Source of the DNA: a virus
Taxonomy: Duplodnaviria; Caudoviricetes
IMG/VR virus record: IMGVR_UViG_3300033121_001357
Span: 1-64,000 of that record
Length of the DNA stretch: 64,000 nt
Strand: one strand, 5' to 3'
The translations under genes were made by a program, and so were the position numbers. Positions 1-63,050 of this stretch are shown piece by piece; position 1 is the first letter of the stretch, and each line of letters opens with the position of its first letter. The notes beneath the pieces are model-generated. The model saw nothing but the letters and a program-made list of their open reading frames with translations. It had not been told where the DNA came from and did no database searches.

Positions 1-339
1 AGGAATGTCATCCATAGTTGCAAATGGATTGATTGCAGAAGGAAGTGCGGCTTGATCCAGTGCATCCTGAACGTCTGCGCTCAGCTCAGTTCCACCACTA
101 CCAATCTGGATAGATTCAGTTCCAGTCCAAATGTAAAGGTCCCCGGCGTAAACAACAACCTCACCCTTCTTTGGGGGACGGGCTTGCCAGGTATTATAGG
201 CAGAGAGGTCTGCGAGGGTGGTAGCCTCGTGATAATGAGCATTGTACTTCTGAGCAGCAGATCTGGCGGTGTCTCCGTCTCTACCATCAAGTGCAGATGT
301 GCCAATGTCCATTAGTGCTGATGTATTCGGTGTGTTCAT
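1..339 (-). CDS. Tail fibre / baseplate-attached fibre protein, N-terminal part (runs off the window end; not in the ORF track)
   Basis: Manual translation from ATG 339 (TAATG overlap with upstream stop): MNTPNTSALMDIGTSALDGRDGDTARSAAQKYN..., open to position 1. The IGT..DG.GD..R....K.N pattern resembles T4 gp9/gp10-type fibre N-termini. Last gene of the baseplate cluster. Confidence 0.6.
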   Translation of the reverse strand, partial: MNTPNTSALMDIGTSALDGRDGDTARSAAQKYNAHYHEATTLADLSAYNTWQARPPKKGEVVVYAGDLYIWTGTESIQIGSGGTELSADVQDALDQAALPSAINPFATMDDIP

Positions 340-2522
340 TACTCTTCACCAATAATTGCTGAAAGGGAAACGGTTAGTGTTGGAGCAGACTCGATTACTG
401 CTGATAGGGCAGTATGGACTACGCCGCTTATTCTCTCAAGGTCTATTTCAACTAGGTCTGAAGCTGGCCACTCGTATCCGTCTTTGACCGGAGCAATGTA
501 AACGTAGATCTTTCCAGTTCCTTCAATAGGAAGTTGATTCAGTGGGACCTCCGCTGTCAGACTATTGATATAGTCTGATTCTTCCCCATCAACATCTATA
601 TTGATAAAGCCCTTATTCTTTGACCCGCTCAGATAGACTCGATAGGAGTCGCATTCAACGTTGTCTGTCCAGATAACCTCTAGAGTATTTGTCTCTGAGT
701 CGAAAGAGACTCCGACGATCTGAGGCTTTTCTGCATAGTATCTAATGACTGGATAGGAACCAAGTGCCATATGCCTTGAGACTAGGGCCGTTACGTCTTC
801 CTTTGTAAAGCTTCCTCCACCTTCCTTGAGTAGTCGGAATGGAGCATCAACAATAAATGCTCCATGTAGAGGCACAGATCGACCAGATAGTTTGTTATCT
901 GAAATCCACTGTAGCTCTGGATACTCATCGAGAAACTTCGGCAGGTTCTCCTCTACCTTTTCTGTCAGCTTGTTTCCCTCTTGTCTTACATCAATGTAGG
1001 TGAGATCGATTGCTGAAGCCTCTCTGGTGATCGTAATACTTCCAAGAATTAAGTAGTTAGGGTGTTGCTCTTTGAATAAAGAGTAGCCTGTTTCATCGTC
1101 TTCATCTGGGACTAGAGTTGGAGTTAGCTCTGTCTCACCAAGTCTAGAATCGGACCAGGCGACAATGTTGTCATCTTCATCCAAGATGATGTGATGAATG
1201 CCGACCTGAAAGGCTGGCATCTCGGATTCCGGTAGCGCATAAACTACTGCACGACCCTTTAGAAGATGTCTATTGTGTAGAGGATTTAGGTTTAGACTTA
1301 AGTATGTGAAGTCTCTTACCTCTCTATATCCTCTTATGAATACTCTATCTGTAGTAAGGAGTTGCTTCTCTAAGTGGATAAGACCTGCATGCTTGCTAAA
1401 TGACAGCTCATTAGGATCAGGGGTGTTCAGTGGGAAGCGTACTAGCTCAGCCTGTTCGCGCCAACGGCCCATACGATCTACCCAAAAAGTTCTTGGGCTG
1501 TTGGGAGCAGTGGTGTAGCCGAACTTGGGGTTAAGCATTTCGTCTGTGACTAATAGCTGGATATGGTATTCCGAGTTATCAATTAGATGCTTGAATGGAG
1601 TGGCGACGATGTGTCCTGACAGAACAGCGCACTCCTGAGTACCAGTATACTGAATGGGCTCCACAGGCGTGAAGGCTTGGAAGTGATACTCCGGAATGAA
1701 GTAATGCTCCTTATTGCCATTCACAATCGTCGTAATCTCTCCATTGCTTACACTCAGGTACCAAGGCTCTGTAGATCTAGCGAGCAACGGCTTGTGTAGT
1801 TTTAACTGAGACTCAGGGACGAGCTTAATGTAATACGGACCTACACCGTTATGAAGGATTCTATAGCGATACTTACCACTGAGCTTACGAACAGTGTAGA
1901 CACGCCTCTCTCCCCCTGGAAAGTCAACAATGTTGGCCTCTCTAAAACCAGGTTCACTTTCTAATAGTCTGAATACCTGAGTCCCATCTGTAGCGGTATA
2001 CCGGATATAGTAAGCAACTACACTTGCAGATGCCACGTCATACTCTGGCTCTAGGTCGTGAAAGATGGCGATCTCAGACTCGCTAACCACAATCTTATAG
2101 TGAAGACTGTCTACCGTAGACATATTCTGATCTAAGATTTCTGGCTGAGTGCTAAAGCCTCCAGGTATCACGTGCTTGTAGAACAATGGTATTGGCGTTC
2201 CTCGCCCATCCATCTGAGTGACGTTTGTAATGAGAGCGTATTTACTTGGAAGATCGAACATTTGATTGACGTTACGACGAGTGAACCTTACTAGGTAAGA
2301 ATTCTCTGCAATCTCAACGAGACCTGGAGTCTCGTTGATGTCTCTGATGTTGATGTTCTTTGGAGAAGTATCGGGCATCCCAATATATGAGATTGGGACT
2401 TGATGTGGCTGAGGCTTGCCCACGTAGACAAGGTGACGATAGTCGTTTTGTATTGAGACGCTGAATGTCCCAATCTGCCTTTTGACTGGGACATCGTCTA
2501 CGCCAAATCTGATTGGGAGCAT
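339..2522 (-). CDS. Putative baseplate/tail structural protein (727 aa)
   Basis: Long ORF in the baseplate cluster, beta-rich composition, no catalytic motif recognised. Confidence 0.5.
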   Translation of the reverse strand: MLPIRFGVDDVPVKRQIGTFSVSIQNDYRHLVYVGKPQPHQVPISYIGMPDTSPKNINIRDINETPGLVEIAENSYLVRFTRRNVNQMFDLPSKYALITNVTQMDGRGTPIPLFYKHVIPGGFSTQPEILDQNMSTVDSLHYKIVVSESEIAIFHDLEPEYDVASASVVAYYIRYTATDGTQVFRLLESEPGFREANIVDFPGGERRVYTVRKLSGKYRYRILHNGVGPYYIKLVPESQLKLHKPLLARSTEPWYLSVSNGEITTIVNGNKEHYFIPEYHFQAFTPVEPIQYTGTQECAVLSGHIVATPFKHLIDNSEYHIQLLVTDEMLNPKFGYTTAPNSPRTFWVDRMGRWREQAELVRFPLNTPDPNELSFSKHAGLIHLEKQLLTTDRVFIRGYREVRDFTYLSLNLNPLHNRHLLKGRAVVYALPESEMPAFQVGIHHIILDEDDNIVAWSDSRLGETELTPTLVPDEDDETGYSLFKEQHPNYLILGSITITREASAIDLTYIDVRQEGNKLTEKVEENLPKFLDEYPELQWISDNKLSGRSVPLHGAFIVDAPFRLLKEGGGSFTKEDVTALVSRHMALGSYPVIRYYAEKPQIVGVSFDSETNTLEVIWTDNVECDSYRVYLSGSKNKGFINIDVDGEESDYINSLTAEVPLNQLPIEGTGKIYVYIAPVKDGYEWPASDLVEIDLERISGVVHTALSAVIESAPTLTVSLSAIIGEE

Positions 2523-12340: not shown

Positions 12341-12341
12341 T

Positions 12342-12758: not shown

Positions 12759-13182
12759 CTCCTGCTAGAGCGGTCTGAATCTTAGCTACTTGGACGAAAT
12801 TCTTAACTGCGTCCATAGGAAGAGAGAACCTTAGTACCGGTATTGGAGTAAGAATAGTAGATGGAGCCGCTGATAGAAGGAGGTCATTTAGCTTCCACAG
12901 ACCTGCGATACGGATATTTCCAGGGGTGGTGGTCAGGCCTGCTGGTCCTCTGATCACGGTTCCACTCTGGCCAATTACAGAAATCCCTACAGTCTTAGTA
13001 GAGTCATCTGCATCTGGTGCACTAATGTCGATGATATCTGGCGTAAGTGCGATGGCGGCTCTTGCTGTGTCTGATGCTTTTAGTAGTTTCGTTTCTGTAT
13101 AGCGAAGTCGACGAATCTTACCAGCCAGGTCTGTCAGTTCCTGAATGGTTTCTGGAGGGTTTAGCTTTTCAAGAACTGCCAT
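12751..13182 (-). CDS. Hypothetical baseplate-region protein (143 aa)
   Basis: Coupled ORF between hub/spike and gp25-like genes. Confidence 0.5.
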   Translation of the reverse strand: MAVLEKLNPPETIQELTDLAGKIRRLRYTETKLLKASDTARAAIALTPDIIDISAPDADDSTKTVGISVIGQSGTVIRGPAGLTTTPGNIRIAGLWKLNDLLLSAAPSTILTPIPVLRFSLPMDAVKNFVQVAKIQTALAGVV

Positions 13183-13186
13183 GATC

Positions 13187-13558
13187 TTACTGTCCTACAA
13201 AGATAGAGTTCCTAATCGGAACGTATGTTGGCGTGTTTGAAGTGCCTGGTGTATGTGCCAGTTCTAGATACCCTTTCTTCGATTGCCATCCTGCACGATA
13301 GAGTAGAGCCAGGGTCTCTCCTGGCTTAATGCCCCGAGCAATAGTCTCGTGGCATGGGCCCTTGATTGGGAATCTAGTATCTTGGTCAACATCGGAGATT
13401 GTATCACTTGTTTCTCCGTTTACTATCAGCTGAACCGTGGCAGTGTTCTCTTCTGCAAAGTATTCTCTGATTCTGACAGGGATTGGAGCCTGCATGATTG
13501 ATTGCATATATCGTGCAAGAACGTTCTTTGTCTCTCTACCGGCTATCTTTTTAAACAT
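13187..13558 (-). CDS. Putative spike N-terminal (OB-fold-like) protein (123 aa)
   Basis: Directly downstream of the hub; 'VRIREYFAEENTATVQL...IKPGE' resembles gpV/gp5 OB-domain patterns. Confidence 0.4.
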   Translation of the reverse strand: MFKKIAGRETKNVLARYMQSIMQAPIPVRIREYFAEENTATVQLIVNGETSDTISDVDQDTRFPIKGPCHETIARGIKPGETLALLYRAGWQSKKGYLELAHTPGTSNTPTYVPIRNSIFVGQ

Positions 13559-16500: not shown

Positions 16501-19500
16501 GAATTTCCCCTTATTTACGCCATTGTCTCCGATATAGATGTCGCTCCTTCCCTTGTTTGCGGCACGAACAGTTCCGTCTAGCTGGTCCTGATCTGGATGA
16601 ACCCCGAGGATTCTCAGATAGTTATCGACTACCTGATCGATAGCAACCATGCCATAGCGCATACCTCTAGCCTTTGGTCGAGTGCTGGCACCAGCAGTCC
16701 CTAGGATCTTTTCTAGAGTTGCGGAATTACAAAGGTTCACATCTGATTCATTAACCAGAAAGAAGTCTGGGTTGGTGTCTACTGATAAACCAGTAATCGG
16801 GTTTGGAGGTAGTAATAGGTCGGGAAACGCCTGATTGCTCTTGTCGTACTTGATAGAACTACCGACAGTTGCATAGAGCTTTGCGAAATCATTATCCAGT
16901 GGCTTTGCTCCATTATCCGAGGAGCCAAGTAGGAGGACTAATGACTGTGCTGGCCCAGATGCCCAGATCTTGAATGATAGATCAGAGAGCGCTCCTGGGT
17001 TTTCCCTGTCTCCAAATAGGGCATATAGTACCCCTCTCTGGAATCTTCCCTCAAATGCAAAAGCCTTTTCGTTCTCTAAGAAATACTCTCCAGCTTCAAC
17101 CTCTTCTGAATAGTAAGCGATAAGGTCTTTATCAGTTCTACCAAATGGCACTGGTATAGTTCTAGCCAATAGATCGGCCAAGGCACGAATCTGAGGAGAC
17201 CCGATTACCATACTTCTTGGAGCGTTATAGGCTGTTTCAATAGTGATTTTTGAAACGGCACTTGAACCAGATCCAGAAATCTCTTCTTTAAGGAAGGTGC
17301 CAAAACCCTTATTTGTAGTGACTTCGGTACTAATCCAGCGCTTCTTAAGAAGTGTTTCTACGACCTTGAGTGCCATTGTATTATAGTTGGCTTCTGCACT
17401 TGGAACGATGATTGGTCGAAGCTGTTCGTTTATAGTGTTGTCAATCAGACGGAGTGTGATATCCAATCCTCCTGGACTTCCCTGGACCGTGTCTACATTG
17501 ATGCTTTCAATCAAAACGTTCTTAATGTTTAGCGCATTAAGAAGATCATTCCTAATGCTAACCCCCTGCCTTCTAGCGAACTCTCTGAAGGAGATAGCCG
17601 AGTATTCATAAGAGTTCTGAAAGTTCTGAAGCAATCTTAAGAACTCTCTTCCCGTGCTTCCTTCAGCCCTGATAGAGATAGTTGCCACCGTATGCTGTCC
17701 ACCAGTGTACTGGATGGTTGGGAACCTGTGTCCATCGAGGGGCATCATTACAAGGTTGTTACCGAAGCCGACATTGATATCGGTCGGGATTACAGAAGTC
17801 TCTAGATCTGCTGTGTCTAACGTGTACTGAGTAATCTGTGCGATCTTACCCGTGACTGCGTTCTGGACAAAGTACCAATTGCCATCAATCGCGTTTGCAA
17901 GCTCAACCAGAACTGCATCCTCATCTGTCTTTGGATTTGCTCCAATCTTTCTAGCTGTCTCCTTGAGCTGATCTCTTGTCATCGCCTCTGGTGCGATTGG
18001 AGTAGCATGATTTTGTAGAGCAAGAACGGCCATGCCCATTGGGTCCATTACTGCAGAGATTCTGACTGCACTCTCTGTAGTGTCATTCTTCACCACAGGA
18101 GTCTTCATATCTGTCTCAACGAATAGGCCCAATGAAATAGGGTCTAGAGCAGGACCCTGATCAGCATCCCTCCCCTGTCTATATTCGAAGTGTAGGTGTG
18201 GGAAATTAGCCTTTGCTGCTGTTAGTCCAATCTCAGCAAAGACTTCTCCTTGCTTGATAGGTCCAACCTTTGCCCTAACATTCTGAAGGTGGATGTACTT
18301 ACTGGTATTGCCATTAGGATGCCTGATGGCAACAAAGGCTCCAGCTCGCCATGCTGGATTGGTGATAAGCTTGCCTTCTTTATTTCTAATCTGCTGTGGA
18401 AGGGCACGCCACTGCTCTTCGGTCTGGACCTTAAAGACAATACCATCCATTACAGCACGAACAGGGGTGCCTACTGGACCCTGAAGGTCTGTGCCTCCAT
18501 GCATTCTTCCATGACGCATTCCTACACGGCCACCTACCTGGTTATACTTTAACTTGCCAGGGATGGGTGCTAGAAGCTTGCCAGAGACAGCGGTTCTAAT
18601 CGCATGCATCGCCTCTAGGGGGTTTTGCTTTGTAAGCTCCTCTGCAACCTGCCTGGCTGCCATGAGGCGCCTTTTCTCACTCATCTCCTGAAGGATCTGA
18701 CCTACTGACTTTGGACCACTTGGAGTCTCAATAGTTTTTGGGGCCTTCATAATGGTAAAGTCAAACGCAATGTTCTCATTAAAGCCGCTGAGATGGAATG
18801 CTGGCATAGCCGACATTGTCTTTGCTAGGTAAGCCTCTGGGCCATCCTTCTGAGCAAGGACTGCAGGATTTGTTGACTTGTACTTATAGGGCCAAAGGTA
18901 TTCATTCAGAGGACGAGCTTCAAAGATATTCTCTGTCTGGCTGTGATATGCGGTTGCATTATAAACAGTAGATGGATGTCCGTAGTTCTTGATAAAGAAT
19001 GCACGTCCGGTATCCGAATCAGACTGAGTCTCCTTCTCTCCTTGGGCCTTTAATGAGGCATAGATGTTTCTAAATTCTGCAACAGAATTCATTCCGTTGT
19101 TGTCCACCCATTCTTTACGAAACTTAATCCGTGGGGTGAATGGACGATGGTTGTACCAAGTAAATTGGAATTCTGCACTGAGAGCATAAGGCATCCCTCT
19201 GACAGTTGAGATGTTCACCATCTTCAGGAATGCGCCGATGTTCTCATCTGGAACAACAGGAAGGACTGTATAAAGAAGCTCGTTCTTGATAAAGCAAAGC
19301 GGCATCCTCTTAAGACTATAAAGGATCGGCATTAGCGTATTGTTGATAGAGCCAAGATCGGTCCCATTCTCTCCGTTGAGGTCTTCAGTTACACCGGTAA
19401 AGATAGCGGATACGACGAAGTCGATCTGGCTCTGTCCGCTGCGACTCTTGGTAGATTCGCGCGTTCTTAGCGTCTCGAACTTGAAGTTGTTGTTCCGCTC

Positions 19501-19608
19501 TGAGAAGGAGATAGCATTTGGTGGAATGGGGAATCTGATCCCATTAATCTCAAACTCCCCGGATGGTAGAATGCCTGGGTCGGATAGTTCTGTTGAATTA
19601 AGATCCAT
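13558..19608 (-). CDS. Baseplate hub / tail-associated lysin with internal M23 metallopeptidase (2016 aa)
   Basis: M23 motifs HGGTD (HxxxD, about 18487-18501), YIHL and PHLHFE (HxH, about 18190). The C-terminal half has hub-like 'G..V.V..GY......VF.G.I' and 'G....VGRA.LKPYD...G...IEEV.H.F....GF' patterns. Confidence 0.75.
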   Translation of the reverse strand: MDLNSTELSDPGILPSGEFEINGIRFPIPPNAISFSERNNNFKFETLRTRESTKSRSGQSQIDFVVSAIFTGVTEDLNGENGTDLGSINNTLMPILYSLKRMPLCFIKNELLYTVLPVVPDENIGAFLKMVNISTVRGMPYALSAEFQFTWYNHRPFTPRIKFRKEWVDNNGMNSVAEFRNIYASLKAQGEKETQSDSDTGRAFFIKNYGHPSTVYNATAYHSQTENIFEARPLNEYLWPYKYKSTNPAVLAQKDGPEAYLAKTMSAMPAFHLSGFNENIAFDFTIMKAPKTIETPSGPKSVGQILQEMSEKRRLMAARQVAEELTKQNPLEAMHAIRTAVSGKLLAPIPGKLKYNQVGGRVGMRHGRMHGGTDLQGPVGTPVRAVMDGIVFKVQTEEQWRALPQQIRNKEGKLITNPAWRAGAFVAIRHPNGNTSKYIHLQNVRAKVGPIKQGEVFAEIGLTAAKANFPHLHFEYRQGRDADQGPALDPISLGLFVETDMKTPVVKNDTTESAVRISAVMDPMGMAVLALQNHATPIAPEAMTRDQLKETARKIGANPKTDEDAVLVELANAIDGNWYFVQNAVTGKIAQITQYTLDTADLETSVIPTDINVGFGNNLVMMPLDGHRFPTIQYTGGQHTVATISIRAEGSTGREFLRLLQNFQNSYEYSAISFREFARRQGVSIRNDLLNALNIKNVLIESINVDTVQGSPGGLDITLRLIDNTINEQLRPIIVPSAEANYNTMALKVVETLLKKRWISTEVTTNKGFGTFLKEEISGSGSSAVSKITIETAYNAPRSMVIGSPQIRALADLLARTIPVPFGRTDKDLIAYYSEEVEAGEYFLENEKAFAFEGRFQRGVLYALFGDRENPGALSDLSFKIWASGPAQSLVLLLGSSDNGAKPLDNDFAKLYATVGSSIKYDKSNQAFPDLLLPPNPITGLSVDTNPDFFLVNESDVNLCNSATLEKILGTAGASTRPKARGMRYGMVAIDQVVDNYLRILGVHPDQDQLDGTVRAANKGRSDIYIGDNGVNKGKFKTTGTQSNIVTTVFKSNKYSTPLVFDRAEATPDPTVLATINGVTPVLQNDIAARKTGGYESGKPYQREKTIPPMYDQSAYADQLISGFNDVSAFGERLENGVRIQHKFEQGAYKEVFSRFAEKYSSDHYTVRRSFPTFKIFFVEEDGELGLAAPDGKLEGALDKLGQTVALDDFYGVNAIKEISIVHAKDMAASTCVIQLLDVDGILYNRKYNYKTDGSYRDIAGPIDIHGRAVKEKQLVDDDNPFYSTVIKEGMKVVVKFGYVNDPNELETVFVGQIAQFEGDKLITIVCQGYGTELVAKRFGDDPSENVDIYNTTTADLLYDILDREELRHFGRWQLKDVDLFGGLFGHEKLRPDGKVKTAWTWKPSVVDDNLFIPDTNTYASSWARIWGDLEYVYWDTTIWDVFKEMELRHPGYIAYPVPYGNSIDTRMTMFFGQPDQLYLSRPANDMDELRNEFKSATIDGMDLRNSIINLGRGHGGVGLNFTANAVASSPLVEDASLQEGIRLIANTGGDQLKLAALAIKAGAKDATLFAKYYPQAKAAVMEMQKATYENFAKGNLSNPRGAIDSDQLAMSTLAFQRDRLRPFRNYEMVTSLHDIISNSIKVDHRDTFNSVELHYSDNDVNFGTFFQEAPEVLTVNADDNIREHHIRRTIEAWPNCTTTDLARRYASQLLANSLKRVYKGTLTIVGRAKLKPYDMLWVHDNYADMAGPIEIEEVVHTFSPDTGFISEIVPNMVVTVREEVTTLMVDAVSQFFTEQIKDFTNGALLGLGITGLLRSGIANLTKGSAQVNEGVAFAQNAPKVLEATKVQPLTLEETIWSNAATNAAEAAPILQKQGIENMFKGGAFLGGGIGLIPTAIRQDINGEKVAGFATGAATAIAFEFLPITVSIAAIIAGSCLYKFLKYNSTREPILITPLIKEGKPYISGVEGMETDGLLITDLSGAIDNGIKKWRYYTDGLEDAVEIIKFGVAKWWSTEY

Positions 19609-22600
19609 TAACTGCCTCTCTCAATTCTGCGTCTAATATACTCTTCGTTAATTCTAGAACGGTAATCATTGACTGTTAGATTTACGCCTGCATCTGGGAA
19701 GTTGTGCTTGAGTCTTTCTGCTATAGCATTTGAATTAACAGGGGAGGATGTGCTGCCCGTGATCCTAATAGACTTACCGGAACCAACTGCTACTGGCGCA
19801 AAGTTCCCCATGTCCATAGGAGGCGTTGTAGGCTCCCCTGTTCTATGTGCACCTTCAGCTCCATCTGCTACTTCTGAGGAGATATTTCCAGGAGAGCTTA
19901 GCAGCATAGACGTTGCAATAGCAAGACCAGCTCCGACTAAAAGAGGCTTCTTGTGCTTTAGGAATGTGCTGTAGACGTCCTCAAAGGATGTCGCCGCATT
20001 CCTAACATGCCTTCCTAGAGAAGAGCCCTCAGAGGCAGCTACAAGCTCTGCTGTTGCATTCTTATAGAGCTGTCCATGTAAGGTGTCCAATGACCCCTTC
20101 CTCATAAGGGTTATCATTCTTTCTAGCTGTTCAACACCTGCATCTTGCCCTCTAAGGGTCCTCAAGAGATTGCCCTCACCCGTAGCCACGGCCTTGTGAG
20201 CAGATTCAATGATTGCAGTTGTGTTTTCAATTGATGCAATCTTTCCAAGTGTCTCTAGGTTTCCCTCTGTACCATGTAAAGCGAGAAAGTGATTCCTGAA
20301 GTTTTCAGCTACTGTAGGAACCCCAACGTCTCTAAATTTACCCTGAAGAGCATGCATCATATATTCAATGTGATCTGCAGCTTCAGCCATCTTACCTGCA
20401 CCAATCTGTCTGGCCTTTAGTGGACTCTCAGGCATTACTCCATAGAGCATCTCACCATAGAGTCTCATATCAACCATACTGGAAGGAGTCGCCTGTCGGA
20501 AGACTCGGCGAGAGAAGTCTGTGGCGTTTGTCATGGCACCGATGCTACCCTTCTCAAGTTCTGCGGCTTTTGCAGCAGCAATACGTCTGGCGTTCCATTC
20601 CGGAGTGCCAGGTATAACATCTGCTGCCTCGATCATCTTGGCTTCCTTGGCATCCTTAAGCGCTGAGTAGAGCTTGGCCTGACGGATCTTATAGATAAAG
20701 CCCTCTTCAGCTAGCTGATGCTCAGCGGTCATCTGTTGTGGCCGAAGTCCCTTTAAGAAATCCTCCTCATTGGAAATGATAGCATCCCTTTCCTGTTTGG
20801 ATAGACCTGCATATTTGGCAACAATACTCTGGTGATATCGAGACCTTGTCTTAAGTTTGTCATAGGTATTTCTATCTTTGATTGCAAAGAGGTTTAGCTG
20901 GTCATCGTCAAAGTCTGCGCCGAAGATAAGTTCCATATGCTTTGGAAGCATGACCTGACTACCAGCATGCTTTTGCTTAACTGCTCGCTTAATAGCTCTG
21001 CTATAGAGGTCAAGCTCTCGACTCTCACTATGCATAAAATCGTAGTTTTGCTGCTGCTTTGCGATTGCCTCATTGGCGCTCTTTGTAGTTCTGTCGAGGA
21101 CCTTCCTTCCCTTCCGTCTGGTTGTCTTGTATCCCTTCCCCTTCTTCTTTCTTGCACCTTCTGTTTCTGCCTTGACCTTACCAACTTCTATCTCAGCCTT
21201 TCTCTTTGCATCATGCAAGAGTCTTGCAGATACAACTTTATCAAATAGAATTCGGTTCTTTGTCTTTAGGTACTCCGCTGAGTCCAAGGAGAAGAGGCTC
21301 GTCTTAAGGCCTGTGATATCTTCGGCATTCCGGATGATGGTATCAGCGTGCTTTTCTAGGACCTTGTCTAAGCTTCCCACATTTGCAGCACTAATACGAA
21401 ACATCTCTGTTGGAGGATCTCTTGAGAGGATCATAGCAGCCTTGCCTGAACGCAGGTCTGCCATACGCTCTGCAATCTCGTCAGCATCAGCACCTAGCTG
21501 CCTCAACTGCTTTTCGTATTCACTCTCTCTAATAAGAGGCTTGTGTTCCCAGCCTTCAAGACCCATCTCTGCAAATGTTTCCGGCAATAGATTCGACTGT
21601 GCACGTAGACGGGAAGAGCCGCTTACTGGTCCGGAGAGAGCGGCAGTGGGAGACTGGTTCTTACCAATTGTAATCTTGGCAGCTTCGTCTCCATAAATAG
21701 CAGCACCTCTCATTGCCTCTGCCTCATTCCCGTTAGCCATACTTTCAATAGTATCAACCAATGCAGTATCTAGTTTCGTGGAGGCTACCCTACCCCCTGG
21801 ACCAGTAAAGCCACCTGTGTGCTTACTGATCTCTTCTGGGTGATAGATGTATCGCCCCTTATCTCCCTTTCCTGTTACATCAAATACCAGGGGTGCGTTG
21901 TCGCCCAAGTCGAATGTCTCTCTCATTGTGCTGAAGGCCTTTGATCTCTTTAGCTGATTTCTAGAGATTAGGTCTCTGTAGATGCCCTCATCGAGATTTG
22001 CATTCTGTAGATCCAAAGCAGTAATGGCTTTGACATTGGGTGAGATTCCCTCCATGAACACGCCAACTCTACGATAGACCTCGTTCCCCTCTTCAATATC
22101 AAATCCACTTCTTCGACCTAAGAGCTCGATCATAGCATCGGCCATTGCTCCGCCTTGGGCCCTACCATGCTCTGCCATCTGCATTGAGATTGAGCCCATG
22201 CGACCTGAACCGCTTGTGACAGCAGAGTTACCACCGATGGAAAATACGTGGTTTTTGATTCCATACTGGAGCTGAGACTGTAAGGCACGTCCGTACGCTG
22301 TACGGACTCCGCCTGCTGTAAACGTTCCTTTCCTCATGTACGTATAGAACGCTCGTGCTGCAGCGTCATCACCAAGTTTAGCAATCCTACCAAAGGCCTC
22401 TCTCTGTGGTCCCGATACCTCTTCGGCCTGGCTTAGGTCTTCAAAGAGCTTGCTGGCACTCCACATGCCCCGCCCCTTCCTCTTGACAGTTAGGGCAGCA
22501 GCCTTATCGAAATTCTCTGCCAAGTTTCCCTTAGACTCATCAAATACAAGTGATCCAACCTTACCTGTAAGGCCCACACCTCTGAAGACTCTCTGCTCAG

Positions 22601-25055
22601 CCCTCATTGAATAGTATTCCTTCAATAGCTCGGGCGTTGAAATTGCCCCGCTCTTGTTATAACCCTTCATAAGGATCTGTCGGGTGGTGGCCATTCTCTG
22701 CTCTAGATCAGCCATATATCCTGAGATCTCGTGAACCATTGCTTCAGTAGCTTGAGGCATTGTTCTTTCGGAGATCTTCTTTAGACCCTGGACGCCATAT
22801 CCCTGAAGTCCCTCAGTGTTCTTCCAGGCAGTGTTCCAAGCGTCATGAAGGGGCGTCCCCTTCATTGCATCCCTGTAGTTAACAAAGTCCCCGCCCGAGG
22901 CAAGCACAGCTCTTTCGTGTGGCGCAAGCATGTCGTTCATATCTTTGAAATAAAGATCGAGCTCTTGCTGGGAGGCGCCCCTCTTTACCAGATCCTGATA
23001 TACGTAATCGTTGCGGGCAACTTCGTACATAGCTGCCATCTTTCTTCCGACGAGGTTATCAAGCTCCTCTTTGATCGTAACCTTCATGCCGAAGCCCTTA
23101 TCGCCCTGACCCAGTGTCCTCTCTAGTTCACCATTCAGGACGAATTTATTTCCATCCTTTGTTGGGATTAGCTGGGCTCTGTTCACGATAAATCTTTCCG
23201 CATTCTCAGGAACTGTCTCGTAGGTTCCATTCGGATTCAGACCAAGTACCTCTCCGGAGCGATAGACAGTGCTCTCTAACATTGCCAACTCTGTTGGAGT
23301 TCCTCCCTGGACTCCAACTCTTTTCATCAGATCTTCTATTTCTGAAACAGCGATGCCGCCCTTAAGACGCTCTCTGAATTCAGCCATTCCAGGGATATCG
23401 GAATCCACCAAGGTCCCGAGGCGGTCACTAAAGAATGAAGATCCATGAAGGTTAACAGTATGGGTGCTTCTGTACTTGATCTTATCAAGTAGGACCATTT
23501 CGTCTTCGTGTAGATTGATGTGACTCAGTCCCACAGCTCTGAAAATACTATTGGATATATCTTGTGGTACCGAGGCTACACGGATATGGCTGAGGGCCTC
23601 ATTGGCTGCAAGCTGGGCACTGCCTCTAACGATGTTCTTGGGGGCGCGCTGCATGTAGCTGACTCGTGTGCCTCTTAAAGACTGAGCAATCGTCTTGTTG
23701 TCACCAGACATCCCAGCGAAGGAAGATCCAAAGATTCTGCCAAATGGGTTCGGAATGTTTCTGATACCAGAAGTCTGCTGTGTTGGGGAAAGACCGGCAT
23801 TGACATCGAACTTCATTGAACCAAGAAGCTCATCATGTAGCTTCATAATATCTGCTGAAGGTGCAGGCATTCCATGGAGACCGCGTAGGGTCACCTGATA
23901 TGCAAGCTTTCTGTTGTAGCTCATATTGGCAGTCATGGCTACAAGAGGCTTGCCAGTGTCCTCTCGTGCATGGCCAATTAGGCTCGCATAGAATCGCCTA
24001 TTTGAAGTCTTACTCTCAACAATGTCTTTTAGCAGACCATCAGCAAATGTCTGAGCGAAGTATTCATCTGGTGAACGATAGAGGGCGTTTATGTCTTTAA
24101 CTCCTGCGATAACGTTCTTTTCAAAGTTCGCTGTTCGAACCCTTCTGGCAATTAGAGTTCTCTCTCCAAATGTACCCAGTCTAACGCGGCCATTCATCTC
24201 TATAGGAAGCTCTGCAATAGTCCTATTCCCCTGAATGATATGCACATTCGCAAGACGCTCTTCTGCATCTACCTGTAGTGCCATCATCTTCATCTGAAGT
24301 CTGGACTTAGAATTGTTTGGTAGGGCGGAATTGTACTCGTTTACAAATTCCTCAATCCTATTCATGTGCTCGAGAAGACCTGGACGATGTGCTAAGCGTG
24401 CGGGATTATAGTCAAAGGTATTGGTGAGAGTGGATACATTGAATGCGTTTAATCCCTTACCGGGCACCTTGGTAAGGTCAGAGATTCTGAGAATTGCTCC
24501 GTTACTTTCAATGTGTGCTGCATTTGCTCTGATAATCTTCTCGGCAGCAGTTCTACCCTTAGCTCCTGTAAGGTTCCCGATAAGCCCCTGCTGACGAGCA
24601 ATAAGTTCCATATACTGACGATGGGCTGGACTGGCGTCCATTATCTGAATAAGAGATTCTCTAGAAGCTCTTCCAGACTTTAGGTCGATACCAAATCCCT
24701 CGAGGTGTCCAGGCTCTAGTTTGAATGCAGTGGCGAGACTTTCGACAGCATGCCCTCTAGCTCTACGGATGCTTGCACGTAGCTCTGGCGTATTAACAGC
24801 ACTTTCAAAGTTTCCCTTACCAGTAAATGCAGAAGCAATATCTTCTGAGCTCATGACATACCTATTCTTACGAGATACCTGTAGAGCATCGAATAGGGCC
24901 CTCTGCTCTCTCTGCTGTCTCCACGGGGCAGAGATAGTACCTCTACCTTTTAGGTCGTCGAGCGTACGAATGCCTGCAGTTGCTAGACCTCCTAGCAACA
25001 TACCTGGTGCGACATAATTCCCGAAGAAATCTCTTCTGGTCTTCTTATTGCTCAT
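19608..25055 (-). CDS. Putative single-chain two-barrel (double-psi beta-barrel) virion RNA polymerase (1815 aa)
   Basis: Ordered motifs: NLHEDEMVL (aa about 516, cf. RpoB NFEDSI); RTLGQGDKGFGMKVTI (aa 651-658, cf. RpoB GDK..G.KGVI); LSGPVSGSSR (aa about 1149, cf. RpoC KRVDYSGR); ILSRDPPT (R1212, cf. RpoC LNRAPT); FGADFDDDQL (D1381/D1383/D1385 at 20901-20915, cf. NADFDGDQM). Confidence 0.75.
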   Translation of the reverse strand: MSNKKTRRDFFGNYVAPGMLLGGLATAGIRTLDDLKGRGTISAPWRQQREQRALFDALQVSRKNRYVMSSEDIASAFTGKGNFESAVNTPELRASIRRARGHAVESLATAFKLEPGHLEGFGIDLKSGRASRESLIQIMDASPAHRQYMELIARQQGLIGNLTGAKGRTAAEKIIRANAAHIESNGAILRISDLTKVPGKGLNAFNVSTLTNTFDYNPARLAHRPGLLEHMNRIEEFVNEYNSALPNNSKSRLQMKMMALQVDAEERLANVHIIQGNRTIAELPIEMNGRVRLGTFGERTLIARRVRTANFEKNVIAGVKDINALYRSPDEYFAQTFADGLLKDIVESKTSNRRFYASLIGHAREDTGKPLVAMTANMSYNRKLAYQVTLRGLHGMPAPSADIMKLHDELLGSMKFDVNAGLSPTQQTSGIRNIPNPFGRIFGSSFAGMSGDNKTIAQSLRGTRVSYMQRAPKNIVRGSAQLAANEALSHIRVASVPQDISNSIFRAVGLSHINLHEDEMVLLDKIKYRSTHTVNLHGSSFFSDRLGTLVDSDIPGMAEFRERLKGGIAVSEIEDLMKRVGVQGGTPTELAMLESTVYRSGEVLGLNPNGTYETVPENAERFIVNRAQLIPTKDGNKFVLNGELERTLGQGDKGFGMKVTIKEELDNLVGRKMAAMYEVARNDYVYQDLVKRGASQQELDLYFKDMNDMLAPHERAVLASGGDFVNYRDAMKGTPLHDAWNTAWKNTEGLQGYGVQGLKKISERTMPQATEAMVHEISGYMADLEQRMATTRQILMKGYNKSGAISTPELLKEYYSMRAEQRVFRGVGLTGKVGSLVFDESKGNLAENFDKAAALTVKRKGRGMWSASKLFEDLSQAEEVSGPQREAFGRIAKLGDDAAARAFYTYMRKGTFTAGGVRTAYGRALQSQLQYGIKNHVFSIGGNSAVTSGSGRMGSISMQMAEHGRAQGGAMADAMIELLGRRSGFDIEEGNEVYRRVGVFMEGISPNVKAITALDLQNANLDEGIYRDLISRNQLKRSKAFSTMRETFDLGDNAPLVFDVTGKGDKGRYIYHPEEISKHTGGFTGPGGRVASTKLDTALVDTIESMANGNEAEAMRGAAIYGDEAAKITIGKNQSPTAALSGPVSGSSRLRAQSNLLPETFAEMGLEGWEHKPLIRESEYEKQLRQLGADADEIAERMADLRSGKAAMILSRDPPTEMFRISAANVGSLDKVLEKHADTIIRNAEDITGLKTSLFSLDSAEYLKTKNRILFDKVVSARLLHDAKRKAEIEVGKVKAETEGARKKKGKGYKTTRRKGRKVLDRTTKSANEAIAKQQQNYDFMHSESRELDLYSRAIKRAVKQKHAGSQVMLPKHMELIFGADFDDDQLNLFAIKDRNTYDKLKTRSRYHQSIVAKYAGLSKQERDAIISNEEDFLKGLRPQQMTAEHQLAEEGFIYKIRQAKLYSALKDAKEAKMIEAADVIPGTPEWNARRIAAAKAAELEKGSIGAMTNATDFSRRVFRQATPSSMVDMRLYGEMLYGVMPESPLKARQIGAGKMAEAADHIEYMMHALQGKFRDVGVPTVAENFRNHFLALHGTEGNLETLGKIASIENTTAIIESAHKAVATGEGNLLRTLRGQDAGVEQLERMITLMRKGSLDTLHGQLYKNATAELVAASEGSSLGRHVRNAATSFEDVYSTFLKHKKPLLVGAGLAIATSMLLSSPGNISSEVADGAEGAHRTGEPTTPPMDMGNFAPVAVGSGKSIRITGSTSSPVNSNAIAERLKHNFPDAGVNLTVNDYRSRINEEYIRRRIERGS

Positions 25056-28000
25056 TAGGCATCTCCATATCTAATGCCAAACTTTCTAAGTTGGGCATCG
25101 ATATCCTGTCTTCTATCTGCTCTTAAGTCTAGTGAGATCCTTGTCTTGTCTCCAATTGTATCAACAACTTCTACATTTAGATCGTTAATCTTTGAAGACG
25201 TTAGGCTCTTAATCACATCCTCTCTTACACCAGCCGACTTCATTAACTTATTTGCTGCAACATCTACATATGGCTTTCTGCTTACATTCATAACATCGTT
25301 ATCCCAAAGGTCAAAGTCATGAAAGTCTTTGCCTAATGTCTGCACTACTTTCAACTTTACATCATCAATATTAACATCTGGATCATATCCAATCCAGTCA
25401 GCTGCTGGCATTCCGAATGGAGACTGGTCATCGAAATATGGCTCTAGTCGTTTTGCTCTTAGATAGTTTGGGAATGTATCTGGATTTGTTCTTCCACTAC
25501 TGACAGCCTTCTGATATGCCTGCCAGCTATTCACATCTGCCATCTGACCTTCTGTGGCCCTTTGACTTTCAATCGCTGTTACGAGATCTTCCTCACTAGA
25601 AGATAGGTCGCCCTTTGCTGCTAGGCCTGCATAGATCTGCTTCTGCCACTGAGCTGTATAGAACTTTCTTGTGTAGTCAGGAACTAGTTCAAGGATTCTG
25701 GCTCTTGCATTGGGGTCTTCAGTAGCAACAAACTCATCAAAGAAGTTTCTCTCCTCTCTTGGGAGTACCTTCTTAATGTTCTCCATGTCTCCATAGGGGT
25801 CAGCACCGTACATTGTGTACTGAGCCTTTCTGGCATAAGCATAAGCAGCTCGACCTTCACCCTGACTTCTTGCATTTGCTTCCAGTCGCTTGTACTTAAG
25901 ATATTCAAGTTTGTCGAAGTAACCCTTAAGGGCTCGCTCTTCCTGAACGCTTCCTGGGATACCTTCATAGCCGAGGAGGTTCATGGTGTTGTTGAAGGCC
26001 GGCTTTATGAAATCCTCAATTGGACCTTCCCAGCTAGGTGTCCTAGTACTGTAAACATTGCGATCTTCGTATTCAGCAATTGCTGATACCGGACCTGCGA
26101 ACTTGTGGACAGGGGAGATGGGTAGTAGGTGCTCTACAGGATTCTTACGGCCAAGCTCTGTAATAAAGCTCCAGTAGTTACCCAGAAGAGAGTCTGGCTT
26201 GTCTCTAAACTCTACCCTCTTCTCTCTTTCGATGAGCTCTTGCTTAGTGGCCTCGTACATCCACCGATCTTGCTCTGAGAGCTGGTTCCCCTTTGCAAGG
26301 TTATCCATCTTTTCAGAGATAGATTTGAATTCCTTCGAGAATGGAGCGACGTCGCCTAAGATTCGATATTTATGAATGTCTGGATAGTCTTCTGGGTTTA
26401 CACCTTTTAGTTCTTCATACCTTGCAGCGTAACCTGATCCTGGAAGTCTATACTCGCCTTCTGGGATTGCAGCGTAAGGATCTCCATGCTTGAAGTCTGT
26501 GTAGTTATTTGGGCCAGGCATCCATGATGGCATCTTATTGGCAATTGGGTTTAGCTTCTGAAGCTCATAGCGTTCGTTAGGAACGAAACGTCTAAAGGCT
26601 TCAGTAGTCATATAGCCACCACCAAGATTCAAATCCCAGAACCGATCTTGCATACTTCCGACATTAGCAAAGGAGGCTAGGACAGGACTATCAACTCCGA
26701 AGTCTGGAGTGCCGGTTAGCTTCTTCTTAAAGGTAGAGAATATGAAGCCCGGAAGACCCGCTGCTTCTGTGGCCTTATAAGCCATTTCTCCGGCCAGAAA
26801 GGACTGACTGTATGGTGAGCTAGCCCTGATGGGTCCTGTGCCCCCTAAAGCCCGGCTAGGGGCATTAGACGCGTCACTGCCGTAGCGAACGATATCTCCC
26901 CTCTCGATGGCTCCCGCATCCCCTCCAAGCTCGTCTGTATGCATTGTGACAGGGTTCTTTAGAACCCTACCAATGGTCATACCCCAAAGGGTGCCTAGCG
27001 GACCAAACCCTGTGGTGTCAGGACCAGAGATTGGGTAGGGCCTGTCCTCATAAAGCTCCTTCTCTTTCCAGTAAGGATCGTAGAGTCCCTTAATGAATCT
27101 GGAGAATGGGCGATCTGCCATACTGCCGAGCTGGAGCTCATCGGCGGGTTTATCCATGAGGCGGCGGAACCACCCGGGCCTATAGTATTTGGTTTCTTCG
27201 CCCTCGATATCGGTACGACCCATTTCCCAGTTCGCACCCTTCTTTACTGCGACTTCTGTTTCTCCAGCCTGCTCGGCCACAACTTCATCGTAGCTTTGAG
27301 AGGAACCAAGTGAGCCTAGGAAGAACGGTGCAGAGAGTGCAGCACCTATCACAGCGCCAGCAAGACCGAACTTGGCACCCCTGGTCATCGGGCTCTTGAC
27401 AAACTTCTTCATGAAGCCCAGCTGCTCTGGTAGTTCATGAATCTCTTCTCTAGCTGTCTTCCAGGCTAGCTGGTCTGAGACTATTGGGTTTGTAAGAGAA
27501 GCAGCAACACGTCCTGTTAGATAGCCTGCCATTGGGAAGGCCATTACACCCAAGAGTCTATGAGAACCCTTTGCCTCCTCCTCTTGATAACTATTTAAGG
27601 ACGTAAGTCCAGTGACATCAGAGGCTCTTGCATAGAGCCTCTGAGCAGCACCAATTGCCTCTCCTCCGAGCTGTCCGAGATTTCTACCACTAAGCAAGTT
27701 GGTAATAGCACTACCAACCTCATAGGTTGCAGCAATCCCAAGGGCCAGGGGGATCATGCGTCTTATGTGTCTGCCCCAGAGGTCTCCTACACTTCCAGTG
27801 TAGTCGCCACCGGTACCAAAGATGTTTCTGAAGAAACCATATGCCTTAGTATTCTTTGCAGCATCTACGGCTCTAGTCTTACCTATCAGTTCTTCAATTG
27901 CCTCGAGAGGCGTGTCCATCATCCGCAGATAGCGCTCGGACATCTTCTTGGCAAATGTATGACCCTCAAGGGCTGCCCTACGGGTTCTTGGAGAAGATGC

Positions 28001-28960
28001 CTTTGTGAGAAAATCCTCAACTGTCGATGGATCAGTAAAGGCACCCACCACCCCTTTGGTTGTACTACCTAGGGATACGCGCTCTGGGGCTTTAAAGACT
28101 TGATAGGTAGATGGGTTCTTATGGGAGATGGGGCGGGCACCCATAGCCTCTGAGATGGCATCTGTATCTCTAATGATTTGCTGAGACTTGGGTAGTCCAG
28201 TATCGGGATTGATCCCGATGTTTGGATCCTCTATGTTCCAGCGACGGACACCTATCTGAACATCTGGGACAAGGAGCTTTCCAATCTTTCCATCAGGGGT
28301 GGATGAGAACAGGCCCGGGAACCTCCCTGGTTCGAGCTCTCCAGTATTAATTAGATCGGTAACACGTAGACGAGCTTGGTCCATGGACATCGGGGTCCCC
28401 GCTGCAAGGGACCTGTTCATGACGTATTCAGCTAAGTGTTCGTTTGTTGTCGGGGAAACGTGAAAGCCATGAATTCTTTCTAGAGGTTCGAGCTTCCTTC
28501 CGACAAGGGCTGCGTAATGATCTTCAGCTCCGATGATATCTGCAGGATTAATCCTGAGATAGGAGTTTGCATCTGTGAAAGCTTGTCTAGAGGCGAAGCC
28601 AAAGAGGCCGAAGGTTCTAGGAACCCCACCACCCATTTCTTCAAATCTCTTAATACCCTCTAAGAGAAAGTCACCAAGGCGGGCTTCAATCTTACCATTC
28701 TGAAGGGCATAGCCCCTTACCCCCCACCAAGGAGTCTGACCAGCCCTATTGAGACCTTCGGTAAGATACTGAAACTTATGTGGGTCAACTGATACGGTTA
28801 CGTTCTTAGATGCCCAACGTACACCGTAGATACCAACAGTGCCCAGTGCAGCATACTTGAGAGCGTTTGTAAGGGTGTGCGTCTTCCGATCCTCAGAAGG
28901 TCCCACCTCTGCGAATGGCTGTCGGTTAGCTCCTCTGATGATCTTTGCAACGTCATTCAT
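25055..28960 (-). CDS. Tape-measure-like / DNA ejection protein (1301 aa)
   Basis: Follows two chaperone-like genes after the tube genes; several Gly/Ala-rich hydrophobic segments (IPLALGIAATYEVG, LLGVMAFPMAGYLTG, FGLAGAVIGAALSAPFFLG); coupled to the 1815-aa gene by TAATG. Confidence 0.5.
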   Translation of the reverse strand: MNDVAKIIRGANRQPFAEVGPSEDRKTHTLTNALKYAALGTVGIYGVRWASKNVTVSVDPHKFQYLTEGLNRAGQTPWWGVRGYALQNGKIEARLGDFLLEGIKRFEEMGGGVPRTFGLFGFASRQAFTDANSYLRINPADIIGAEDHYAALVGRKLEPLERIHGFHVSPTTNEHLAEYVMNRSLAAGTPMSMDQARLRVTDLINTGELEPGRFPGLFSSTPDGKIGKLLVPDVQIGVRRWNIEDPNIGINPDTGLPKSQQIIRDTDAISEAMGARPISHKNPSTYQVFKAPERVSLGSTTKGVVGAFTDPSTVEDFLTKASSPRTRRAALEGHTFAKKMSERYLRMMDTPLEAIEELIGKTRAVDAAKNTKAYGFFRNIFGTGGDYTGSVGDLWGRHIRRMIPLALGIAATYEVGSAITNLLSGRNLGQLGGEAIGAAQRLYARASDVTGLTSLNSYQEEEAKGSHRLLGVMAFPMAGYLTGRVAASLTNPIVSDQLAWKTAREEIHELPEQLGFMKKFVKSPMTRGAKFGLAGAVIGAALSAPFFLGSLGSSQSYDEVVAEQAGETEVAVKKGANWEMGRTDIEGEETKYYRPGWFRRLMDKPADELQLGSMADRPFSRFIKGLYDPYWKEKELYEDRPYPISGPDTTGFGPLGTLWGMTIGRVLKNPVTMHTDELGGDAGAIERGDIVRYGSDASNAPSRALGGTGPIRASSPYSQSFLAGEMAYKATEAAGLPGFIFSTFKKKLTGTPDFGVDSPVLASFANVGSMQDRFWDLNLGGGYMTTEAFRRFVPNERYELQKLNPIANKMPSWMPGPNNYTDFKHGDPYAAIPEGEYRLPGSGYAARYEELKGVNPEDYPDIHKYRILGDVAPFSKEFKSISEKMDNLAKGNQLSEQDRWMYEATKQELIEREKRVEFRDKPDSLLGNYWSFITELGRKNPVEHLLPISPVHKFAGPVSAIAEYEDRNVYSTRTPSWEGPIEDFIKPAFNNTMNLLGYEGIPGSVQEERALKGYFDKLEYLKYKRLEANARSQGEGRAAYAYARKAQYTMYGADPYGDMENIKKVLPREERNFFDEFVATEDPNARARILELVPDYTRKFYTAQWQKQIYAGLAAKGDLSSSEEDLVTAIESQRATEGQMADVNSWQAYQKAVSSGRTNPDTFPNYLRAKRLEPYFDDQSPFGMPAADWIGYDPDVNIDDVKLKVVQTLGKDFHDFDLWDNDVMNVSRKPYVDVAANKLMKSAGVREDVIKSLTSSKINDLNVEVVDTIGDKTRISLDLRADRRQDIDAQLRKFGIRYGDA

Positions 28961-32203: not shown

Positions 32204-32214
32204 GTAAGCTCCAG

Positions 32215-32248
32215 AAAATAAAAAGGGGAGAGCCGAAGCCCTCCCCTT
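32215..32248 (-). terminator. Rho-independent terminator after the major tube gene
   Basis: Minus strand AAGGGGAGGGC-TTCG-GCTCTCCCCTT followed by TTTATTTT. Confidence 0.85.
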
Positions 32249-32274
32249 CAATTACGCCTAAAACCTGAAGTGTT

Positions 32275-61946: not shown

Positions 61947-62171
61947 TTTTCGTTCTCCAACTTAAAAGGTAGTACCCGTTTCCCTCCGAATAAGGTCAAT
62001 AACCAATAAGACCTTAGGTTAAAACCTATTGTAAGTAGAAGGGTGCTGGAAATAAAGGGGAATAGAATTCCTCGTGTGAGAGACCCGTTCGTGAACTCAC
62101 ACGTTCATTCTTCGTTAAAACTTGAATGAACCTGAAAATAAATACCGAATTTTACATCTGCTAAGTCTTCC

Positions 62172-62832: not shown

Positions 62833-62869
62833 GATCCGAGCTTCTTCGCTTCTCTTCCTACAGCCCTCT

Positions 62870-63037: not shown

Positions 63038-63050
63038 ATGGGGCAGGTAG

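Follow-up and report, generated by a model that had tools for sequence, protein, structure and literature searches.

A putative single-chain β-β′ fusion RNA polymerase at the tape-measure locus of a jumbo myovirus lineage

Here we describe P0001, an 1815-amino-acid (aa) protein encoded on the minus strand (19608..25055) of a 64,000-nucleotide (nt) stretch of phage DNA, positions 1 to 64,000 of IMG/VR record IMGVR_UViG_3300033121_001357 (Duplodnaviria; Caudoviricetes), which we call the window. Structure models and a family of diverged homologues point to a fusion of the β and β′ subunits of RNA polymerase, encoded where related contractile-tailed phages carry their tape-measure gene. We read P0001 as a virion-packaged, single-chain two-barrel RNA polymerase that is injected for early transcription, and give this reading as a whole a probability of about 0.62. 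Its parts differ in strength: on the predicted structures, the RNA polymerase fold is close to certain, and activity as a polymerase is highly probable; judged from its context, the protein probably travels in the virion, and a role as the transcriptase of the early genes is somewhat favored.

RESULTS

Motifs of P0001 and their conservation

The preliminary description of this locus, made from the letters of the DNA and their translations, had placed β-like and β′-like motifs in N- to C-terminal order within one 1815-aa open reading frame (ORF), and recomputation of all positions confirmed that this ORF, which has an ATG start, holds every motif listed. The residue numbers of K653/K658 and of DFDDD (1381-1385) are exactly as claimed, whereas those of the other motifs were off by a few residues, LHEDEMV, for instance, lying at 515-521 and not at 516. 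On the β side, LHEDEMV (23493..23513; this and all further features of P0001 are on the minus strand) is the counterpart of the FEDS motif of Escherichia coli β, and GDKGFGMK (651-658; 23082..23105) supplies the two basic residues of the β-type barrel. On the β′ side, SGPVSGSSR (1141-1149, with GPVSGSSR at 1142-1149; 21609..21635) is the counterpart of GKRVDYSGRS, and SRDPPTEMFRI (1211-1221, with LSRDPPT at 1210-1216; 21393..21425) that of RAPTLHRLGI. They are followed by GADFDDD (1379-1385; 20901..20921), which carries the metal-binding triad D1381/D1383/D1385 within GADFDDDQL (1379-1387) and is the sole DxDxD in P0001, and by LEKGSIGAMTNATDFSRRVFR (1500-1520; 20496..20558), a bridge-helix-like motif within a 38-residue helix (residues 1036-1073 of model 1, described below). 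The six motifs are colinear with those of E. coli MG1655, that is, with FEDS (position 813) and GDKMAGRHGNKG (1063) in β and with GKRVDYSGRS (344), RAPTLHR (425), NADFDGD (458), and the bridge helix (781) in β′, and the helix that bears LEKGSIGAMTNATDFSRRVFR would thus correspond to the bridge helix.

With P0001 residues 450-1600 as the query, HMMER was run in full over 1.84 billion cluster representatives and returned 24 homologues; most of these are 1743-1929 aa long, and 18 reach E ≤ 1e-30. We counted conservation in an alignment of 18 full-length members that share 21-36% identity with P0001. Invariant in all 18 are D518, K653, G1142, G1146, R1212, P1214, and the three aspartates D1381, D1383, and D1385, together with E1501, K1502, G1506, N1510, R1516, and R1520 of the bridge-helix-like motif; position 658 is lysine in 15 sequences and arginine in 3. 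The family consensus of the six motifs reads LHEDE, GDKxFGxK, SGKVQGSxR, RxPxTELHRI, GAD[FY]DxDQ, and EKGxIGxMTNAxDFxR. The fourth position of the triad motif, by comparison, is aspartate in eight of the aligned sequences, alanine, asparagine, or glycine in three each, and glutamine in one. Given this variability, the Gly-to-Asp change that had been singled out as a distinguishing trait is no signature of the family, and we rejected the "DFDDD variant" as a definition for it.

The family also differs from the E. coli enzyme in how far the RxP arginine lies from the first aspartate of the triad, the spacing being 35 aa in E. coli, 169 in P0001, and 103-278 across the family. In P0001, a basic helical-hairpin insertion of ~130 residues (~1232-1365; 20961..21362) lies inside the β′-type barrel, between the RxP strand and the DxDxD loop, and is modeled as helices 810-854, 860-892, and 895-912 in the numbering of model 1.

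Searches with P0001 against Pfam (E ≤ 0.1), PHROGs, and NCBIfam returned no match, and the same was true of phmmer and profile hmmsearch against PDB sequences and of megablast and tblastn against 50,697 phage records; a word-indexed search of 5.8 billion proteins gave back P0001 alone. P0001 had no match to PF05183, the family of YonO/QDE-1-like RNA-dependent RNA polymerases (RdRPs), in a search whose control, orf99 of Bacillus phage 0305phi8-36, matched at E = 1.1e-20, and by profile it is not a member of that family. When the family was aligned by hhalign with the E. coli subunits, each gave a single match, RpoC on NADFDGD (E = 0.045) and RpoB on GDKMAGRHGNKG (β 1056-1077, opposite GDK...K; E = 0.24). 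These two profile matches may be taken as supportive, falling as they do on catalytic motifs, but with E values of this size they are insufficient alone.

Predicted structure

The fold assignment is carried by two AlphaFold models, model 1 covering residues 450-1600 (25-row alignment; predicted local distance difference test score [pLDDT], 88.3; predicted template modeling score, 0.81) and model 2 covering residues 1-1000 (pLDDT, 80.6). The best 50 Foldseek matches of model 1 in the PDB are all RNA polymerase chains of the β/Rpb2 or β′ type (E = 1.7e-3 to 1.1e-2; probability, 0.66 to 1.0), and the best 50 of model 2 are all Rpb2/β (best E = 8.1e-5; 47 at E ≤ 1e-3). VIA-align, a structure search that is independent of Foldseek and covered 48,161 chains, gave a consistent picture for each half. 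The leading matches of model 1 are largest subunits (Z = 10-11.7), among them those of human Pol I (7ob9_A; Z = 11.6, 337 residues aligned), Drosophila Pol II (9mu7_A; Z = 11.3), and an archaeal polymerase (2pmz_A; Z = 11.2), all of which span model 1 residues 553-1151, and E. coli β′ (8txo_J), when re-aligned, reached Z = 11.7 with 326 residues aligned (552..1151 of the model against 24..1249 of the chain). For model 2, the nine leading matches are all of the β type (Z = 6.8-9.9), after which the list falls to helical-hairpin noise at Z = 6.2; the β matches include the AR9 non-virion polymerase (7s00_C; Z = 9.9), phiKZ (7ogp_C; Z = 9.4), and Xanthomonas oryzae β (6j9e_C; Z = 8.8, 475 residues aligned, 224..946 of the model against 36..1283 of the chain).

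Single-chain enzymes fit both halves of model 1 at once, their root mean square deviation (rmsd) being 4.0-4.8. They comprise maize RDR2 (7w84_A; Z = 9.9, rmsd 4.0, 321 residues aligned, model 3..1125), QDE-1 (7y7p_A; Z = 9.8), P74-26 gp62 (8f5m_A; Z = 9.4), and P23-45 gp96, which spans both barrels (8h2n_A; Z = 8.1, 298 residues aligned). A designed double-psi β-barrel (7dww_A) matched model 1 residues 697..943 with Z = 8.3 and rmsd 2.2. Since residues 224-950 match β/Rpb2, residues 1002-1600 match β′/Rpb1, and the single-chain enzymes span both, P0001 is, as modeled, a β-then-β′ fusion RNA polymerase that keeps much more than the two barrels. Its β-like module (residues 224-950; 22206..24386) holds the first double-psi β-barrel, and its β′-like module (residues 1002-1600; 20256..22052) holds the second together with C-terminal helical elements. 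The likeness to β and β′ extends over ~1,400 residues, beyond the minimal YonO/QDE-1 core, and in VIA-align QDE-1 and RDR2 (Z = 9.8-9.9) are less similar to P0001 than the multisubunit enzymes are. The alignments across both barrels imply that, in the predicted fold, the aspartate triad and the lysine pair would converge on one site. The earlier proposal of a highly diverged single-chain two-barrel RNA polymerase, for which structure prediction and Foldseek had been suggested as a check, is well supported by these results: the catalytic motifs are invariant in the homologues, the models contain paired double-psi β-barrels, and both of them retrieve RNA polymerase chains only.

Outside this core, the N-terminal region (residues 1-223; 24387..25055) is helical and modeled with low confidence (pLDDT of 41-80 in model 2), and fold searches gave no match for it; its residues 14-29 form a Gly/Ala-rich hydrophobic stretch that is conserved in the family consensus. 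Toward the C terminus, a second conserved hydrophobic segment (1702-1723; 19887..19952) is visible both in the family consensus and in the Kyte-Doolittle profile. The most hydrophobic 19-residue window of P0001 starts at 1705 and scores 1.53, and a Kyte-Doolittle scan at a threshold of 1.6 found no strong transmembrane helix in the protein. The chain ends in a small C-terminal module (1734-1810; 19626..19856), whose relatives are considered next.

The tape-measure slot

By terminase and hub, the nearest cultured relatives of the source phage, all of them jumbo myoviruses, are Moorella phage MTATph1 and Bacillus phages vB_BceM_WH1, Edson, and KLEB27-3 as well as Acinetobacter phage vB_AbaM_ME3 (ME3) and Bacillus phage 0305phi8-36. 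In 0305phi8-36, the sheath gene is followed by those of the tube, a tube paralogue, and two chaperonins and then by gp145 (1930 aa), gp146 (2537 aa), and the hub gp147; gp146 is annotated as "hypothetical tape measure protein," and the annotation identifies gp145 and gp146 alike as virion proteins on the basis of mass spectrometry. In the window, P0001 is preceded in transcription order by P0002 (1301 aa; 25055..28960, minus strand) and followed by P0003 (13558..19608, minus strand), a 2016-aa baseplate hub by Pfam, PHROGs, and tblastn, with an M23 peptidase domain at residues 368-480. P0002 is orthologous to ME3_35 (BLASTP E = 5e-66) and to gp145 (E = 6e-25), and P0003 matches the hubs of 0305phi8-36 and ME3 by tblastn, which puts P0001 in the slot of gp146. 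The gene order around the slot is the same in 0305phi8-36 and ME3, and the location of P0001 fits that of a tape-measure gene. The preliminary description, which had P0001 as a separate gene between a tape-measure-like gene and the hub, was thus right about the hub but not about the other neighbor: P0001 itself fills the tape-measure slot, and the gene upstream is the gp145 orthologue.

The three genes are joined by stop/start overlaps (TAATG) at both junctions, and scans for sigma-70-type promoters and terminators gave no signal that would separate them. The contractile-tailed context that had been proposed is borne out by a sheath gene, tube-like genes, and the 1301-aa gene upstream and by hub and baseplate genes downstream. 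A block of ~1300 aa, ~1800 aa, and an ~2000-aa hub, followed by Baseplate_J, recurs in both of the two relatives examined.

The similarity between P0001 and gp146 is confined to the end of the chain. The sole hhalign match of the family to gp146 covers the last ~75 residues (gp146 2450-2524; E = 0.003), in line with earlier work on orf146, in which the last 60 residues alone aligned with positional homologues (Hardies 2007, PMC2147016). By eye, P0001, gp146, ME3_36 (the ME3 slot protein), and MTATph1 CDS0031 all end alike, with a Pro/Gly-rich linker leading from a hydrophobic segment to a small domain. In MTATph1, a transposase gene, CDS0028, seems to interrupt the slot gene (CDS0027-CDS0031; 7887-15243 of the MTATph1 stretch examined), and the 313-aa CDS0031 just before the hub retains the hydrophobic segment and the terminal domain. 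Tape-measure proteins are mostly extended and helical, and their length sets that of the tail. P0001 does not fit this description: a globular polymerase core is predicted at high confidence for residues 224-1600, and only residues 1-223 and ~1600-1815 could be tape-measure-like. Alignment of the family with gp145 by hhalign gave nothing significant, and neither gp145 nor gp146 of 0305phi8-36 contains a DxDxD.

A structural counterpart in phage ME3

The protein in the same slot of ME3, ME3_36 (1603 aa; 9729-14540 of the ME3 stretch examined), is annotated as hypothetical. It has no significant similarity to P0001 or its family by hhalign or BLASTP, and a BLASTP comparison of gp146 with ME3_36 was likewise empty. 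ME3_36 does contain a pattern like that of a β′ barrel, SREP followed after 37 residues by GGDHDQDQ. In a search of the predicted viral structures in BFVD, model 1 matched both parts of the ME3 protein A0A172Q021 (E = 1.8e-3 and 4.3e-6; probability, 1.00), which we take as ME3_36 because the parts of 801 and 802 residues add up to 1603. On these predicted structures, the positional counterpart of P0001 in ME3 is also a structural match to the P0001 polymerase. Two proteins of uncultured phages outscore it in BFVD, one of them labeled "minor tail protein" (E = 3.4e-8) and the other at E = 2.4e-7, and polymerase subunits of giant eukaryotic viruses come next in the list.

The same search returned a second ME3 protein of 798 aa (A0A172Q0S6; E = 0.018, probability 0.99), which could, if the modeled similarity holds, be a second polymerase. 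Weaker matches were obtained with large proteins of the Microcystis myoviruses LMM01 (A0A7J4_2; E = 4.8e-4, probability 0.54) and MaMV-DC (A0A075BUT7_2; E = 6.3e-3, probability 0.89), and the peptidase domain of P0003 matches LMM01 too; these myoviruses may have the same polymerase arrangement.

Other transcription genes in the lineage

A relative of 204,008 bp, rated complete by CheckV, carries one copy of the P0001 family. Neither this genome nor the record to which the window belongs has a match to PF05183, PF00623, PF00940 (searched without a positive control), or PF04542, and DxDxD scans of the two revealed no second polymerase; among the ORFs of at least 250 aa in the complete relative there is no other β′-like DxDxD, although a very diverged second polymerase is possible there. 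The situation is different in 0305phi8-36, where orf99 (209484-211547) is a polymerase of the YonO/RdRP type by its PF05183 match. No PF05183 match was found in ME3, MTATph1, the record analyzed here, or its relatives, and CDS0026 and CDS0027 of MTATph1 are devoid of DxDxD. In this handful of genomes, the PF05183 polymerase and the tape-measure-slot polymerase look like alternatives that do not co-occur.

Genome context and further observations

The window is part of a 94.5-kb record that CheckV estimates to be ~46% complete; with the complete relative at 204,008 bp, the source phage is a jumbo myovirus of ~200 kb. The genes from ~340 to 61,200 are all on the minus strand and form the structural module. 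In transcription order, they include a terminase (51227-53212), a Mu F-like head protein, the major capsid protein (42137-43435), the tail sheath (32929-35436) with two tube-like paralogues and three small genes after it, the block of P0002, P0001, and P0003, and, beyond another three small genes, one gene like gp25 and one like Baseplate_J/gp6. The adjacent paralogues (31562-32251 and 32275-32913) match phrog_9206, "major head protein" (E = 1.6e-36 and 3.4e-49), and their position and the map of 0305phi8-36 suggest that they encode the tail tube and its paralogue, so that the PHROG label looks misleading. The lysin domain of the otherwise conserved hub is swapped among relatives, being M23 here (in 13558-19608) and in one relative and an SLT lytic transglycosylase in the other (15331-21417 of its locus). 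Upstream of the terminase block, residues 1031-1147 of a 1279-aa protein (56478-60317) match the staphylococcal nuclease domain (Pfam E = 3.2e-18).

The structural module has a G+C fraction of ~0.45-0.50, whereas that of the early region, which is transcribed divergently (62001-64000 of the window and 64001-94493 of the record), is 0.55-0.66. To explain this jump after 62 kb, we considered a prophage-host junction and a chimeric assembly and rejected both, because the complete relative has the same GC-rich block (50-80 kb), which is therefore a property of the lineage. Two hairpins near the border (62476-62500 and 62999-63016) share the stem GTCCACT/AGTGGAC, with 0.01 such cases expected by chance. 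Lying between the structural module and the early genes, they might be candidate promoter or RNA elements for the polymerase.

DISCUSSION

Our analysis suggests how a polymerase of this kind could work. The β′-type barrel would contribute the Mg-binding triad D1381/D1383/D1385 and the β-type barrel K653 and K658, with the long conserved helix at 1485-1522 serving as the bridge helix. The translational coupling of P0001 to late tail genes and its place in the tape-measure slot argue that it would be synthesized late and incorporated into the virion. When its gene lies among the late structural ones, a polymerase is of use to early transcription only by being carried in the particle, which is the reason for placing P0001 in the virion, and the same argument held for gp66 of crAss-like phages (bioRxiv 10.1101/2020.03.07.982082) and for gp96 of P23-45 (PMC10770324), two-barrel polymerases that are expressed late and delivered with the virion. 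The protein would most likely be stored in or at the tail lumen, with its C-terminal module docked to the hub; contraction of the sheath would expel it, extended, through the tube, and it would refold at or beyond the inner membrane and transcribe the first phage genes from the entering DNA.

Several points weigh against this reading. First, the similarity to RNA polymerases at the level of sequence profiles is not significant by itself, with E values of 0.045 and 0.24 and empty searches of Pfam, PHROGs, NCBIfam, and the PDB, and the Foldseek template modeling scores are low (~0.1), because the cores alone superpose. Second, the positional counterpart in 0305phi8-36, gp146, is without a DxDxD, so the slot does not always hold a polymerase. 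Third, with a record that is ~46% complete, a second polymerase in the source phage is possible, and no promoter for the P0001 enzyme was identified. Finally, as the main physical difficulty, a folded core of ~1,400 residues is too large for the lumen of a tail tube, so that one must suppose storage in an extended or unfolded form; this difficulty of storage and passage has been accepted already for gp66 and gp96.

Of the other explanations, the one that survives best, although we regard it as unlikely, is that P0001 is an active phage RNA polymerase that is not packaged but is made late and, in the manner of a non-virion polymerase, acts inside the host, perhaps on late or very late genes. 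Such an enzyme would agree equally well with the fold and with the conserved catalytic residues, and, since the complete relative yielded no other polymerase or sigma factor, some phage-specific transcription may need P0001 in the cell. It is harder to reconcile with a gene that lies inside the tail operon, between orthologues of two virion proteins and with overlapping stop and start codons on both sides, and with a C-terminal hydrophobic segment and terminal domain that are typical of the slot proteins of this lineage and for which a cytoplasmic enzyme has no evident need. Less probable still is a structural tape-measure or ejection protein of polymerase descent that has lost catalysis and is kept for its shape or for DNA binding. 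P0001 does occupy the tape-measure slot with termini that resemble those of gp146, and crAss gp66 crystallized with its motif in a noncatalytic conformation, but at 21-36% identity the three aspartates, K653, R1212, P1214, and the bridge-helix-like residues are all invariant while their surroundings vary freely, which indicates selection on catalysis.

We consider it very improbable that P0001 is a two-barrel enzyme with another template or product (an RdRP like QDE-1 or RDR2, or a primase-like or PolD-like enzyme) that is injected to prime replication. QDE-1 and RDR2 are indeed among the structural neighbors, and the fold does not reveal the choice of template; yet for both halves the best and longest matches are DNA-dependent multisubunit polymerases, no PolD chain is among the matches listed, and the lineage carries a Pol III-type replicase motif of its own. 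A chance origin of the motifs, within a large orphan tail protein with no polymerase fold, as the lack of significant hits in sequence databases might suggest, can be dismissed, given that both models retrieve RNA polymerases only and that the motifs are invariant and colinear with β and β′.

Among known systems, gp96 of P23-45 is similar to P0001 in being a single-chain two-barrel polymerase whose gene, in a long-tailed phage, takes the tape-measure position and whose chain also contains membrane and tape-measure-type elements. However, P23-45 is a siphovirus, and in the 5,002 aa of its gp96 the polymerase occupies the N-terminal ~1,100 residues and is followed by a long true tape measure (Chaban et al. 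2024, PMC10770324), whereas the phage of P0001 is contractile-tailed and the polymerase makes up most of the 1815 aa, between short N- and C-terminal parts that look tape-measure-like. The two have no detectable sequence similarity, and the β-like half of P0001 aligns with nearly the whole β subunit, whereas gp96 is described as flat and clamp-less. With gp66 of phi14:2, P0001 shares the format of a giant virion-type protein with both barrels in one chain, a DFDxD whose fourth residue is not glycine, a sequence too diverged for standard searches, and a gene within a block of very large structural genes. Yet gp66 belongs to a podovirus-like phage and has QDE-1 as its closest structure (Drobysheva et al., bioRxiv 10.1101/2020.03.07.982082), whereas the closest structures of P0001 are multisubunit β and β′, and the gp66 structure is not among the matches listed.

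YonO, orf99 of 0305phi8-36, and the eukaryotic RdRPs (PF05183) are likewise single-chain two-barrel enzymes, but orf99 is a nonstructural gene on the other arm of the 0305phi8-36 genome. The multisubunit polymerases of phiKZ, AR9, and cells provide the best neighbors of each half of P0001, whose motifs follow the same order as in E. coli; they consist of two to five polypeptides, however, whereas P0001 is one chain, β and then β′, with no Pfam-level similarity to them, and its family has a helical insertion of 100-280 aa in the β′-type barrel. Finally, gp146 of 0305phi8-36 shares with P0001 the slot between a gp145 orthologue and the hub and the C-terminal layout, but it has neither the DxDxD nor any detectable similarity outside the last ~75 residues.

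Both the virion two-barrel polymerase and the polymerase tied to a tape-measure gene are known, and it is the P0001 family itself that is undescribed. In the full-text literature that we searched, from which subscription-only papers were outside the scope, no polymerase is described in the tape-measure slot of a contractile-tailed phage, and the supplementary files of Chaban et al. (PMC10770324), including the survey table in Supplementary Data 4, contain no ME3, Acinetobacter, Moorella, or 0305phi8 entry. A published survey of viral two-barrel polymerases was filtered on '[RK]xPx{20,100}DxDxD'; the insertion in the P0001 family pushes the spacing from RxP to DxDxD past 20-100 residues, so that this filter would drop nearly all of its members.

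To our knowledge, virion-delivered two-barrel RNA polymerases come from few settings only, namely, the multisubunit enzymes of the phiKZ type, gp66 of crAss-like phages, and gp96 of P23-45, and each of them changed ideas about the extent to which this ancient enzyme can be remodeled. The P0001 family adds a contractile-tailed lineage, a one-chain β-β′ architecture that keeps far more of the cellular subunits than the YonO- or QDE-1-like enzymes do, and a large insertion inside the catalytic barrel. It also raises a physical puzzle, namely, how a core of ~1,400 residues is stored and passed through a tube. Across the clade, we can tentatively imagine, although we think it rather doubtful as a whole, that the slot protein is a complete β-β′ polymerase that is stored in the lumen in extended form, fired by contraction, and anchored at the membrane by its hydrophobic ends, where it would pull in and transcribe the genome; it would be the sole phage-encoded polymerase and may recognize the structured elements that are dense in the GC-rich early region. 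As its counterpart ME3_36 belongs to a cultured phage, the idea can be tested at the bench. The P0001 family further suggests that the association of polymerases with the tape-measure slot has more than one origin.

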